Of a stretch of DNA of 64,000 nucleotides, positions 17,113 to 50,655 are shown piece by piece. Each line of letters begins with the position of its first letter. Position 1 is the first letter of the stretch. This stretch comes from Escherichia coli (GTDB lineage: Bacteria; Pseudomonadota; Gammaproteobacteria; Enterobacterales; Enterobacteriaceae): the NCBI RefSeq assembly GCF_002854065.1, contig NZ_CP024147.1; one strand, given 5' to 3'. The position numbers and the translations under genes were made by a program. The notes beneath the pieces were generated by a model that searched no databases, was not told the origin of the DNA, and saw nothing but the letters and a program-made list of their open reading frames with translations.

Positions 17113-18477
17113 TTATGCCTGGCGAATTGCCTGTTCAACATCAAAGCGATTCGTCACTTTGCTGTCGATTTTCACATAAGCTGAATGTTCTTCTTCTGCA
17201 ATCAACACTTCTTTGATGCCTTCAGTTTCTAGCAAACGCACTTTTAACGCCTCGTTTGCGGCAATGTTCGCCGGGATTTCAATGCGCAAGCTGCTGACAT
17301 ACGGCGGTTCTTTCATGGTACTGGCGACTGCCAGCCACACTGCGGCCAGCATTGCGCCAGCGAGAAATACGCCCTGACCGTCAAACATGCCGTCAATCCA
17401 GCCGCCCAGTGAACCGCCAATCGCCACGCCAAGAAACTGGCTGGTGGAGTAAACACCCATCGCCGTACCTTTGTAACCTGCTGGCGACTCTTTACTGATA
17501 AGTGAGGGCAGGAGGGCTTCCATCAAATTAAACGCCACAAAGAAAAGCTGCACGCCGACCACCAGTTGCCAGAACTGCGTTTGCGCGTTCCACAACACAA
17601 TTTCCGCAACCACGATCAACCCGACGCAGAAGACAAAGACTTGCTTCATTTTGCGCTTAACTTCAGCGTAGATAATGAAAGGCACGACCGAGCCAAAGGC
17701 GATTAGCATTGTCGCCAGATAGACCTTCCAGTGTTCAGCCGCCGGGAACCCCGCATCAGCCAGTTGTCCGGGCAGGGCAACAAACGTCGACATCAGCAAA
17801 ATATGCAGACACATAATGCCAAAGTTGAGTTTCAGCAGCCGCGGTTCCGCCAGCACTTTACTGAAACTGCCTTTCACCATTCCGGACTCACGATTAAGTA
17901 CGTGAGTGCTACTGTTGGGCACAACCCAAATGGTCAACGCAATGCCGGTCGTTGCCAGAATAGCGATCATCCAGAACAGCGCGTGCAGCCCAAGTTTGTG
18001 AGTGATGATCGGGCCAAGCACCATCGCAATGGCAAAGGTAATGCCAAAGCTCACGCCGATAAACGCCATTGCTTTGGTGCGGTTTTGTTCGCGCGTGAGA
18101 TCGGAAAGCAGCGCCATAACGGCAGCGGCAATCGCACCGGAGCCTTGTAGCGCCCGACCCAGAATAATTCCCCAGATGGAGTCAGAGAGCGCAGCGATAA
18201 CGCTACCGGCGGCAAACACTGCCAGCCCACCGACAATTAATGGTTTGCGACCAATGCGGTCGGAAAGCAGGCCAAACGGAATCTGAAAAACGGCCTGAGT
18301 CAGACCATAAATACCAATGGCAATACCGATTAATGCTTCGCTGGCACCTTGCAGAGCCATGCCGTACGTGGTCAGAACCGGCAGAACCATGAACATGCCC
18401 AGCATGCGCAACGAGAATACGGTCCCTAAACCCCAGGTCGCGCGCCGCTCACCTGGTGTCATTTTATAATCGTTCAT
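17113..18477 (-). CDS. yajR: MFS transporter YajR
   Basis: ORF 17113..18483 begins with GTG; ATG at 18477 gives 454 aa MNDYKMTPGERRATWGLG..., 12-TM MFS topology plus C-terminal cytosolic domain. Confidence 0.9.
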   Translation of the reverse strand: MNDYKMTPGERRATWGLGTVFSLRMLGMFMVLPVLTTYGMALQGASEALIGIAIGIYGLTQAVFQIPFGLLSDRIGRKPLIVGGLAVFAAGSVIAALSDSIWGIILGRALQGSGAIAAAVMALLSDLTREQNRTKAMAFIGVSFGITFAIAMVLGPIITHKLGLHALFWMIAILATTGIALTIWVVPNSSTHVLNRESGMVKGSFSKVLAEPRLLKLNFGIMCLHILLMSTFVALPGQLADAGFPAAEHWKVYLATMLIAFGSVVPFIIYAEVKRKMKQVFVFCVGLIVVAEIVLWNAQTQFWQLVVGVQLFFVAFNLMEALLPSLISKESPAGYKGTAMGVYSTSQFLGVAIGGSLGGWIDGMFDGQGVFLAGAMLAAVWLAVASTMKEPPYVSSLRIEIPANIAANEALKVRLLETEGIKEVLIAEEEHSAYVKIDSKVTNRFDVEQAIRQA

Positions 18478-18883
18478 TACCACCTCTTAAAAAAATGCCC
18501 ACATAGTGTAGTGCGGAGCGCATGTTGGGTAAACAGAGTGTTAATGAGAAAATATTACAGAGGAGAATAATTTGTGTGTCAGGTATGTTTTTTGCATTCA
18601 TAAAATGAATGCTCTATATGTTGAAAAAATGAATTTTAAAGCTAAATAGTTTTACATCAAAAAAATAATAATATCATTTCTTGATTACCATGTGCATTTT
18701 TTATCTTACGAATATGCTAGTTTTATCTTACTAAATAAACGATTTGGTGACATGGATGATAATGTTTCAGGCTAAATGTGTGCTTATTACTTGGGCCTTT
18801 ATGGCACTGTATTTATTCATTAAATGGATGTTTGGTGGTTAATTATTATGGAAGTATATGACAGTGAGGACATAAAGGTATAC

Positions 18884-19819
18884 ATGTTAACTAAAAGAAT
18901 ATTATTTTCTTTAATGCTAATAGTTTCACCAGGCGTGGTGGCAAGCGAGAAAGCGCATGAATTGTATGACAGCATATACGGTGGTCAACCTGCGCCCGAT
19001 GTTATAAATACACTGCATAAAATGGCTGAATTGGGAGATGTCGACGCGCAGAGCCTGTTAGGCTGGGAATATTATCAGCCTCGCTATGATACCAAACCTG
19101 ATGTTCAGGAAGCGATTAAATGGTTCGAGTTAGCCGCTAAACAAGGTGACAGAGAAGCTCCGTTAGCGCTGGGGAGTATCTACTACATCGGTGAGCTGGT
19201 GCGGGTGGATTATGCCAAAGCGTATGCACTATTTAATCAGGCCGCGCAATACGGTGTGAATTTAGCATGGTCCAGGTTGGGCATGATGTACGCCAATGGT
19301 CAGTATGTTGAGGTAGATTGTAAGAAAGCGAAGGAATATCTTGATAAAGGTGTCCACATTTATGGTGGTCCGGAAGACTTTCTGGCTACATGTCGAAAAG
19401 ACATGATTGACAGAAAAACGGTTGACGATACGTTACCCGTGATCACGGTTACCCGTTCTGGGATGCGGGATAATTTTTTAGATAAAGATTTTTCCTGCAT
19501 GGATAGCCTCTTCGCCACCACCAATAAATTAGGCGAAGTGGCCAATCTTCGCGTGACATTCAGCATTCGTAGCCCATCCGGTAAGGAGATTAACCAAACG
19601 GTTGGCTTCGCGCCTTTCGGTTTAAACCGGCTGAATATTAGCTTTACTGATTACATATTTGATTCATTTACCAGTAATTCGTCTCTAATTCTTTATAAAC
19701 CGGAATTTGAGCGAAAATCTTGTGCAACTGTAAGGACCACAATCGTTGCCGCAACGGCAACCATTAACGGCAAGGATGTGGAGTTGCTGAAAGCGGGGGC
19801 AATTGAACAAAAGTGGTAA
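18884..19819 (+). CDS. Secreted Sel1-repeat (TPR-like) protein with uncharacterised C-terminal domain
   Basis: ORF 18824..19819; likely start ATG 18884 preceded by AAAGG RBS, giving Sec-type signal peptide MLTKRILFSLMLIVSPGVVA-SE; three to four Sel1-like units (GDVDAQSLLGWEYY..., AIKWFELAAKQGDREAPLALGSIYYIGE..., AKAYALFNQAAQYGVNLAWSRLGMMYANG...); AT-rich; not in K-12 yajR-cyoE junction by recalled gene order. Confidence 0.7.
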   Translation: MLTKRILFSLMLIVSPGVVASEKAHELYDSIYGGQPAPDVINTLHKMAELGDVDAQSLLGWEYYQPRYDTKPDVQEAIKWFELAAKQGDREAPLALGSIYYIGELVRVDYAKAYALFNQAAQYGVNLAWSRLGMMYANGQYVEVDCKKAKEYLDKGVHIYGGPEDFLATCRKDMIDRKTVDDTLPVITVTRSGMRDNFLDKDFSCMDSLFATTNKLGEVANLRVTFSIRSPSGKEINQTVGFAPFGLNRLNISFTDYIFDSFTSNSSLILYKPEFERKSCATVRTTIVAATATINGKDVELLKAGAIEQKW

Positions 19820-19874
19820 CGCTGCTCAGCCCCCGGCTAAGGCAAAACTTGCCCTGGCGGGTGGCGATAATAAT

Positions 19875-20417
19875 CTAAGCCGCGAGAATATGCTGAATCG
19901 CCAAAAACATAGGTACAGCACCAAAAGCATTTGGTGTCGCTGAAAGCTGAACAAAGCCGAGACGAGCATAAAAGTTAATGGCGGCAGGGTCAGCATCAAG
20001 ATAAACCCCTTTAATTGGTAATGCCTGGTGAATTATTTTTACATGTTCAAAAAAATCACATAGTAGGTCCTGACCAAAGCCCCGCTTTTGATACTTCCGC
20101 GCCACCCCCAACATGACTAATCTGACAACACCAATCTCTGAAGGCTGTGAACCCTGAAGGACGCCAGAAACGCGTTGTTTTTCCAGCGAATATGCCGTAA
20201 AAGTACAGATGCCAATCAGTTCACCACTTTGTCTGTCAATAAGTGCTTTAGCCGCACAGTCGCTATTACGCACACTTTTCTTTAGCGATGTGCGTACAAA
20301 TTTATCGATAACAGGGTTACCGCAATCAAACTGTTTTTGCCCAGGATAAGTAATATCAGACTGATAATTACAGGAGAGGACTATGGGCAGAGTAATCTCT
20401 TCATGCTTGTCGACCAT
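19875..20417 (-). CDS. GNAT-family acetyltransferase, candidate type II toxin (TacT/AtaT/ItaT-like tRNA acetyltransferase class)
   Basis: 180 aa; N-terminal FDCGNPVIDKFV motif; acetyl-CoA pocket-like RKYQKRGFGQDLL; C-terminal INFYARLGF; start overlaps upstream DUF1778-like ORF by 17 bp; AAGGA RBS. Confidence 0.75.
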   Translation of the reverse strand: MVDKHEEITLPIVLSCNYQSDITYPGQKQFDCGNPVIDKFVRTSLKKSVRNSDCAAKALIDRQSGELIGICTFTAYSLEKQRVSGVLQGSQPSEIGVVRLVMLGVARKYQKRGFGQDLLCDFFEHVKIIHQALPIKGVYLDADPAAINFYARLGFVQLSATPNAFGAVPMFLAIQHILAA

Positions 20418-20712
20418 CGCTGTTTTTCCTTTTCATTAACGCCTTGAGTGCGAGCGTCGGTTGAGCAGGTTCGGCGATGAGTTGGTTCATCAGTTCCCAG
20501 CTTTGATTCGAAAGCTCACGGCGACGTTGGTTATCAAGCACGCTTTCGGCGCGTTCCATAGCAGCGCTCAAAATAAAGGCGCTTAAATCTAACCCAACGG
20601 CTTGCGCAGCTTCACGAAGTCTGTTTTTGGCGTCGGGACTGGTTTTGAGTTCAACCCGCGCATTTTTCAGCGTTTTATCGACATCGGGTAGAGTGGCTGT
20701 TTTTCCAGGCAT
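20401..20712 (-). CDS. DUF1778/ribbon-helix-helix-type antitoxin candidate
   Basis: ORF 20401..20778 trimmed to ATG 20712 (MPGKTATLPDVDKTL...) with AGAGGT RBS 7 nt upstream; 104 aa; pattern VELKTSPDAKNRLREAAQAVGLDLSAFILSA typical of antitoxins paired with GNAT toxins. Confidence 0.65.
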   Translation of the reverse strand: MPGKTATLPDVDKTLKNARVELKTSPDAKNRLREAAQAVGLDLSAFILSAAMERAESVLDNQRRRELSNQSWELMNQLIAEPAQPTLALKALMKRKNSDGRQA

Positions 20713-20765
20713 TGTGACCTCTTTGATTAACTGAATGAAATCGTAGGGAGTCGATCTCATACATA

Positions 20766-20784
20766 ATACGGCTATCAACCGTAT
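20766..20784. promoter_or_regulatory. Palindrome 1 ATACGG-N7-CCGTAT (putative antitoxin operator, overlaps transcription start region)
   Basis: ATACGGCTATCAACCGTAT read directly; lies immediately downstream of the putative -10 on the minus strand. Confidence 0.5.
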
Positions 20785-20788
20785 GATT

Positions 20789-20817
20789 AATTTATGTGCA
20801 TCTGCTCACTCTGTCAA
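20789..20817 (-). promoter_or_regulatory. Putative sigma70 promoter of the antitoxin-toxin operon
   Basis: Minus strand reads TTGACA (20817..20812) - 17 bp - TAAATT (20794..20789); perfect -35, 17-bp spacer. Confidence 0.5.
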
Positions 20818-20820
20818 GAG

Positions 20821-20839
20821 ATACGGTTATTAGCCGTAT
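20821..20839. promoter_or_regulatory. Palindrome 2 ATACGG-N7-CCGTAT (putative operator just upstream of -35)
   Basis: ATACGGTTATTAGCCGTAT; same half-sites as palindrome 1, centre-to-centre 55 bp. Confidence 0.5.
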
Positions 20840-20856
20840 CTCTGATCTCAGACAAT

Positions 20857-20882
20857 AAAAAAGGTGCCGTAGCACCTTTTTA
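20857..20882 (-). terminator. Rho-independent terminator downstream of cyoE (end of cyo operon)
   Basis: AAGGTGC-cgta-GCACCTT stem-loop flanked by A/T runs, immediately 3' of cyoE stop. Confidence 0.65.
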
Positions 20883-32782: not shown

Positions 32783-32811
32783 TTAACCATTCCCATACAA
32801 TTAGTTAACCA

Positions 32812-32847
32812 AAAAGGGGGGATTTTATCTCCCCTTTAATTTTTCCT
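32812..32847 (+). terminator. Terminator after clpX
   Basis: AGGGGGGA-ttttatc-TCCCCT stem followed by T-rich run. Confidence 0.55.
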
Positions 32848-32969
32848 CTATTCTCGGCGTTGAATGTGGGGGAAACATCCCCATATACTGACGTACATGT
32901 TAATAGATGGCGTGAAGCACAGTCGTGTCATCTGATTACCTGGCGGAAATTAAACTAAGAGAGAGCTCT

Positions 32970-50541: not shown

Positions 50542-50655
50542 GGGGGCTCTGTTGGTTCTCCCGCAACGCTACTCTGTTTACCAGGTCAGGTCCGGAAGGA
50601 AGCAGCCAAGGCAGATGACGCGTGTGCCGGGATGTAGCTGGCAGGGCCCCCACCC
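50542..50655 (+). ncRNA. ffs: 4.5S RNA (signal recognition particle RNA)
   Basis: 114-nt stretch GGGGGCTCTGTTGGTTCTCCCGCAACGC...GGCAGGGCCCCCACCC matches remembered 4.5S RNA; located between atl and ybaA as in K-12. Confidence 0.92.

Follow-up and report, generated by a model that had tools for sequence, protein, structure and literature searches.

Which system occupies the junction between yajR and cyoE in this Escherichia coli genome, and is it a new one? The window, by which we mean the whole 64-kb stretch of DNA that was analysed, holds at 19875-20860, on the minus strand, two co-oriented open reading frames (ORFs), itaR and then itaT, located between these two core genes. The original prediction took the pair for a type II toxin-antitoxin (TA) operon consisting of a DUF1778/ribbon-helix-helix (RHH) antitoxin and a GNAT toxin, placed the toxin in the tRNA-acetylating TacT/AtaT/ItaT/KacT class, left the target aminoacyl-tRNA open, and implied that the module was novel. 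Both the type and the class turn out to be right, and only the implied novelty falls away: the itaRT module is already known, and this is not a new system. As judged from sequence comparison, the locus is, with a probability of about 95%, the chromosomal itaR-itaT type II TA operon of E. coli, represented here by a rare allele.

Gene boundaries and identity of the pair

The antitoxin gene comes first, and its 3' end overlaps the start of the toxin gene by exactly 17 nt, as had been proposed; the two genes and the motifs quoted for their products (ELKTSPDAKNRLREAAQAVGLDLSAFILSA, FDCG, RKYQKRGFGQ, and FYARLGF) were recovered from the ORFs and the sequence (Table 1). The antitoxin length needs correcting, from 104 to 103 amino acids, because the count of 104 codons includes the stop. 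The calculated masses of ItaT and ItaR, 19.83 and 11.40 kDa, equal the published values of 19.8 and 11.4 kDa (PMC6125619). Two other starts were tried and rejected. A 125-aa form of ItaR initiated from TTG at 20778 is unlikely, given that its start codon lacks a Shine-Dalgarno sequence and would lie only about 4 nt from the predicted 5' end of the transcript; the agreement of the 103-aa product with the published mass and with the RefSeq annotation also speaks against it. An out-of-frame ATG at 20404, which overlaps the itaR stop codon as ATGA, opens a frame that ends after 7 codons.

Table 1. Coordinates of the features of the itaRT locus in the window
Feature	Position	Strand	Description
Sel1-repeat gene	18884..19819	+	ORF, 311 aa; Pfam Sel1 repeats; convergent with itaT; 'tetratricopeptide repeat protein' in RefSeq
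itaT/Sel1-repeat gene spacer	19820..19874		55 bp; GC-rich hairpin, core ~19839-19855, no U-tract
itaT	19875..20417	-	180 aa + stop; ATG at 20417, TAG at 19875; GNAT acetyltransferase toxin, 19.8 kDa
itaR	20401..20712	-	103 aa + stop; ATG at 20712, TGA at 20401-20403; RHH (TacA1/DUF1778) antitoxin, 11.4 kDa
Shine-Dalgarno sequence of itaR	20718..20724	-	AAAGAGG; its end lies 5 nt upstream of the ATG; seen in the sequence itself
Palindrome 2	20766..20784		ATACGG-N7-CCGTAT; candidate ItaR operator; immediately follows the -10 hexamer and covers the predicted transcription start
Predicted sigma-70 promoter of itaRT	20789..20817	-	TTGACA, 17-nt spacer, TAAATT; 10/12 matches
Palindrome 1	20821..20839		ATACGG-N7-CCGTAT; abuts the -35 hexamer; arms extendable to 9 nt (20818-20842); candidate ItaR operator
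cyoE intrinsic terminator hairpin	20858..20881	-	Right-hand boundary of the insertion

The domain assignments can be stated with precision. ItaT matches the Pfam family Acetyltransf_7 (E = 1.6e-7), as well as Acetyltransf_10 and Acetyltransf_1, and ItaR matches TacA1 (PF08681, the former DUF1778; E = 2.8e-17), such that both domains expected by the original prediction were found. Among protein structures, ItaT aligns over all 180 residues with chain A of 7BYY (E = 1.6e-117), and to judge by these three values, the domain and structure matches of the pair are not a chance pattern. The next-best toxin structures are far weaker, namely, 9ILR (3.8e-9), 6GTS and 6AJM (approximately 2e-6 to 3e-6), KacT (2.8e-6), and TacT (5FVJ; 6e-4). 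For ItaR, the best structural matches are KacA (5ZGN_A; E = 3.5e-11) and the DUF1778 chains 6AJM_C, 6GTO, and 6GTS (E = 8.4e-9). We take the toxin chains of 6AJM and 6GTS to be AtaT, and the antitoxin chains of 6AJM_C, 6GTO, and 6GTS to be AtaR, of E. coli O157:H7. Searches against two further collections were negative: among the NCBIfam models, ItaT had no match and ItaR only a sub-threshold one to MobA (RHH), and none of the protein models of PADLOC-DB v2 matched ItaT, ItaR, or the neighbouring Sel1-repeat protein at E <= 1e-3.

The two differences between the window toxin and 7BYY are T43A and G115D. The structure is that of ItaT(G115D) from E. coli HS, in which G115D was engineered to abolish acetyl-CoA binding (Zhang et al. 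2020, PMC7367177), and therefore, the sole natural difference is at position 43. Comparison with the HS genome (NC_009800) yields the same picture for both proteins. ItaT shares 179 of its 180 residues with ECHS_RS02480 (99%; T43 here, A43 in HS), and 101 of the 103 residues of ItaR are those of ECHS_RS02485 (98%; R31 and L41 here, K31 and V41 in HS), which, for practical purposes, makes the pair identical to a characterised TA module. The gene order in HS, yajR - TPR - GNAT - DUF1778 - cyoE, and the 17-nt overlap are likewise the same, whereas at the nucleotide level, 18 differences separate the two genomes in the 1026 bp that lie between the stop codons of cyoE and itaT. Because the near-identity, the locus, the overlap, and the masses all agree with those in HS, it appears very likely that the module in the window is allelic to the published itaRT and not just another member of the family.

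The functionally important residues are retained as well. Structure-guided mutagenesis of ItaT has defined a hydrophobic pocket for the aminoacyl group (V36, I37, F40, and M102) and a basic tRNA-binding face (K39, R42, K46, K47, R50, K80, and R82), and has assigned G115 to the acetyl-CoA loop with the consensus Q/RxxGxG/A, Y150 as the general acid, and L133 to the dimer interface (PMC7367177). In the window ItaT, the loop reads Q110-K-R-G113-F-G115, in agreement with this consensus, and all the residues that mutagenesis has shown to be required for activity (V36/I37, F40, K46/K47, K80, M102, G115, L133, and Y150), along with the remainder of the tRNA face, are present.

The insertion, its third gene, and the spread of the module

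The absence of the pair from the yajR-cyoE junction of K-12, which the original prediction had asserted, is borne out by the K-12-type strain C600, where the two genes are separated by a spacer of only 148 bp. The window contains approximately 2.3 kb of additional DNA, from roughly 18.56-18.60 kb to 20,856. The insertion extends beyond the TA pair, as this segment also encompasses the Sel1-repeat gene, which had been missed. On the right, K-12-type strains become homologous to the window again from about position 20857, directly after the cyoE terminator hairpin; on the left, a diverged yet alignable stretch reaches to roughly 18.56-18.60 kb, with no clean breakpoint. We found nothing convincing at the edges of the insertion among direct or inverted repeats, target duplications, and mobile-element ends. 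The stretch between yajR and the Sel1-repeat gene (18450-18900) has a GC content of 27-30% and includes a number of short direct repeats, among them three copies of TTCATAAAATGAAT; this AT-rich region looks horizontally acquired and might be silenced by H-NS. In the spacer between itaT and the Sel1-repeat gene, a hairpin with a folding energy of -29.4 kcal/mol is modestly more stable than shuffled sequences (z = -2.2); with a z-score of only this size and no U-tract, we do not call it a terminator.

Among 5426 complete E. coli genomes, 1369 (about 25%) carry itaRT, nearly always as a single chromosomal copy; the region of the Sel1-repeat gene likewise matches 1369 genomes. Altogether, itaRT occurs in 1370 places, one of them on a plasmid record, with one genome holding two, and all others being single chromosomal copies. 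The itaRT module is therefore an accessory trait, present at a fixed site together with the Sel1-repeat gene in about a quarter of the complete genomes of the species.

The coexistence of the two in the same number of genomes, and within one yajR-cyoE insertion, brings up the possibility of a three-gene system in which the Sel1-repeat protein, secreted from the cell, works with itaRT in a role such as sensor or effector partner. The N-terminus of this protein resembles a signal peptide (MLTKRILFSLMLIVSPGVVASE...). However, the gene runs toward itaT from an AT-rich upstream region of its own and accordingly forms a separate transcription unit; it is frameshifted or contains an internal stop in some divergent strains that keep itaRT intact, and this coexistence of a pseudogene with an intact TA pair argues against an obligatory three-gene unit. 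Furthermore, itaRT by itself reproduces toxicity, neutralisation, and autoregulation (PMC6125619), and no defence model in PADLOC matches any of the three proteins. We consider a three-gene system to be extremely unlikely, and the two-gene operon, flanked by a separately transcribed neighbour, remains by far the preferred reading.

The form of the module found here is uncommon. The itaRT of the window is a minority haplotype, distinguished by T43 in ItaT and by R31 and L41 in ItaR; of the five haplotypes compared, only that of the window has these residues, with A43 found in ItaT of HS and of the three other haplotypes. Modules that share at least 99% identity with that in the window are present in 26 genomes, and the other carriers show 95-99% identity, most of them about 98%. 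The itaRT region of strain PapRG-06-5 matches that of the window at 100%.

This rarity (26 of the 5426 genomes) and the private residues are compatible with an allele that has decayed or shifted in function, with A43T weakening the toxin or altering the choice of aminoacyl-tRNA, and K31R and V41L altering the reading of the operator. The location of the substitutions lends some substance to this scenario, as position 43 of ItaT lies on helix alpha1, between F40 of the pocket and R42 and K46 of the tRNA face, and both R31 and L41 of ItaR fall within the RHH domain. Nevertheless, all three substitutions are conservative, every residue defined by mutagenesis is unchanged, both frames are intact, as are the promoter, overlap, and Shine-Dalgarno sequence, and the structural paper does not discuss position 43, with neither A43 nor T43 appearing in it (PMC7367177). 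A decayed or shifted allele is, in our estimation, very improbable. Taken jointly, the two departures from the preferred reading, that is, either a rare haplotype that functionally differs from the HS allele in aminoacyl-tRNA preference or operator affinity, or a three-part system that includes the Sel1-repeat gene, amount to a slim chance.

Another accessory gene lies elsewhere in the window, where a gene for a 531-aa pentapeptide-repeat protein is inserted between pgpA and yajO (7271-8866, minus strand). In PapRG-06-5 and the best-matching genomes, RefSeq names this protein T3SS effector EspY3. The gene so annotated is present in 936 of the 5426 complete E. coli genomes and is absent from the pgpA-yajO junction of HS; short tandem repeats of KDPN and IDFG occur in its product, and the lengths of the matches differ by about 12-24 nt between strains. 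The window also contains two RNAs that match Rfam families at the gathering threshold, the sraA sRNA (32803-32898, minus strand; 106.7 bits) and ffs, the bacterial small SRP RNA (50550-50646, plus strand; 68.1 bits), both of which are ordinary RNAs of the core genome.

The promoter and two candidate operators

Between 19700 and 21000, the sequence TTGACA-17-TAAATT is the only sigma-70-like promoter, and transcription of itaRT would start from it (20817-20789). It falls within the upstream fragment for which ItaRT-repressible activity has been reported in HS, and the promoter region as a whole is closely similar in the two strains, which differ at 3 positions within the 144 bp that separate the start codon of itaR from the cyoE terminator. 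In the HS system, a reporter driven by the region upstream of itaRT is repressed by the ItaR-ItaT complex but not by ItaR alone; repression proceeds without a need for catalysis by ItaT, and ItaR is not acetylated (PMC6125619).

The predicted promoter is flanked by two 19-bp palindromes whose starts are 55 bp apart. The pattern ATACGG-N7-CCGTAT occurs at these two sites exactly and, even with one mismatch allowed, nowhere else in the 64 kb, against an expectation of 0.07, and two matches were reached in none of 100 shuffles. In the five haplotypes, the cores of the palindromes show no greater conservation than the surrounding promoter DNA: one of the 9 variable columns of the promoter region falls among the 24 core positions, compared to about 1.5 expected, numbers that are too small to be informative. 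The paper that originally described ItaRT makes no mention of a palindrome or inverted repeat, and its reporter fragment, '-183 to -11', is ambiguously defined, such that the downstream palindrome might or might not be inside it (PMC6125619).

[quoted passage not shown] In the alignment of ItaR with KacA, which extends over residues 14-96 (E = 3.5e-11), the DNA-reading positions are kept: R8 of KacA corresponds to R19 of ItaR, and R12 to K23. Because the palindromes are paired and more frequent than expected by chance, and because of the parallel with the KacAT operator and the reading residues of KacA, we infer that both are candidate ItaR operators. The repressing complex would then bind the two sites, one abutting the -35 hexamer and the other over the start site. 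This operator prediction is testable and goes beyond the original ItaRT paper.

Proposed mechanism and relationship to known systems

The identification as itaRT makes the target tRNA and the mechanism transferable from the literature. The steps outlined here were demonstrated for the HS allele and are carried over to the window by virtue of the 98-99% identity. Expressed alone, itaT of HS arrests the growth of E. coli MG1655, and co-expression of itaR prevents the arrest (Wilcox et al. 2018, PMC6125619); within minutes of expression of the HS toxin, methionine incorporation drops by 80%, toxicity is lost in the Y150A mutant, and ItaR and ItaT co-purify stoichiometrically (PMC6125619). By the same token, the window toxin would be expected to arrest growth and the window antitoxin to neutralise it. 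The acetylation target, the point on which the original prediction took no position, has been established with the near-identical allele of HS: Ile-tRNAIle, the primary target, was reported first, and later, Val- and Met-tRNA were added (PMC7367177). In vivo, ribosome profiling reveals pauses at the Ile codons AUU and AUC, and overproduction of peptidyl-tRNA hydrolase (Pth) relieves the toxicity; this combination of pausing and rescue implies that elongation is the step that is blocked (PMC9177977).

In the window, then, ItaT would be a dimeric GNAT acetyltransferase that modifies the alpha-amino group of Ile-tRNAIle in the first place and of Val- and Met-tRNA in the second, causing ribosomes to stall at Ile codons and growth to stop, with Pth counteracting the toxicity. 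ItaR would bind ItaT tightly and neutralise it, and the ItaR-ItaT complex, but not ItaR alone, would repress the itaRT promoter. The 17-nt overlap presumably couples the translation of itaT to that of itaR.

The value of the locus as a discovery is small, given that ItaRT was described in 2018, the structure of the toxin in 2020, and the profile of its in vivo targets in 2022. What is new here is minor and consists of the candidate operator pair and the rare haplotype.

AtaR-AtaT of E. coli O157:H7 shows weak similarity to the pair (E of about 2e-6 for the toxin and 8.4e-9 for the antitoxin). AtaRT occupies a different locus, and in phylogenetic analysis, AtaT belongs to clade A and ItaT to clade B; AtaT was first reported to act on initiator Met-tRNAfMet in vitro, whereas its activity in vivo is broad, with a bias toward Gly-tRNAGly (PMC9177977). 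TacA-TacT of Salmonella Typhimurium is the founding GNAT/TacA member, and, as is the case for ItaT, Pth detoxifies the product of TacT; TacT has been reported as specific for Gly-tRNAGly, and TacT3 strongly prefers the same substrate in vivo (PMC9177977). The similarity of TacT to ItaT is very weak (E = 6e-4), and, furthermore, TacA is acetylated by TacT, in contrast to ItaR, which ItaT leaves unacetylated.

A further comparison is with KacA-KacT of Klebsiella pneumoniae (5ZGN, 5XUN; PMC6698736), which shares with ItaR-ItaT the combination of a GNAT toxin and an RHH/DUF1778 antitoxin, even though the toxins themselves are only distantly related (30.7 bits; E = 2.8e-6). The two systems differ in that KacA alone binds DNA (PMC6698736), whereas ItaR alone did not repress (PMC6125619). 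They appear to differ also in the architecture of the operator, as KacAT has a single palindrome, which is bound by a T-A2-A2-T heterohexamer, in contrast to the two palindromes 55 bp apart in the window. If the prediction is correct, these would be the first ItaR operators to be defined, and the itaRT promoter would accommodate two repressor complexes, in contrast to KacAT with its one palindrome.
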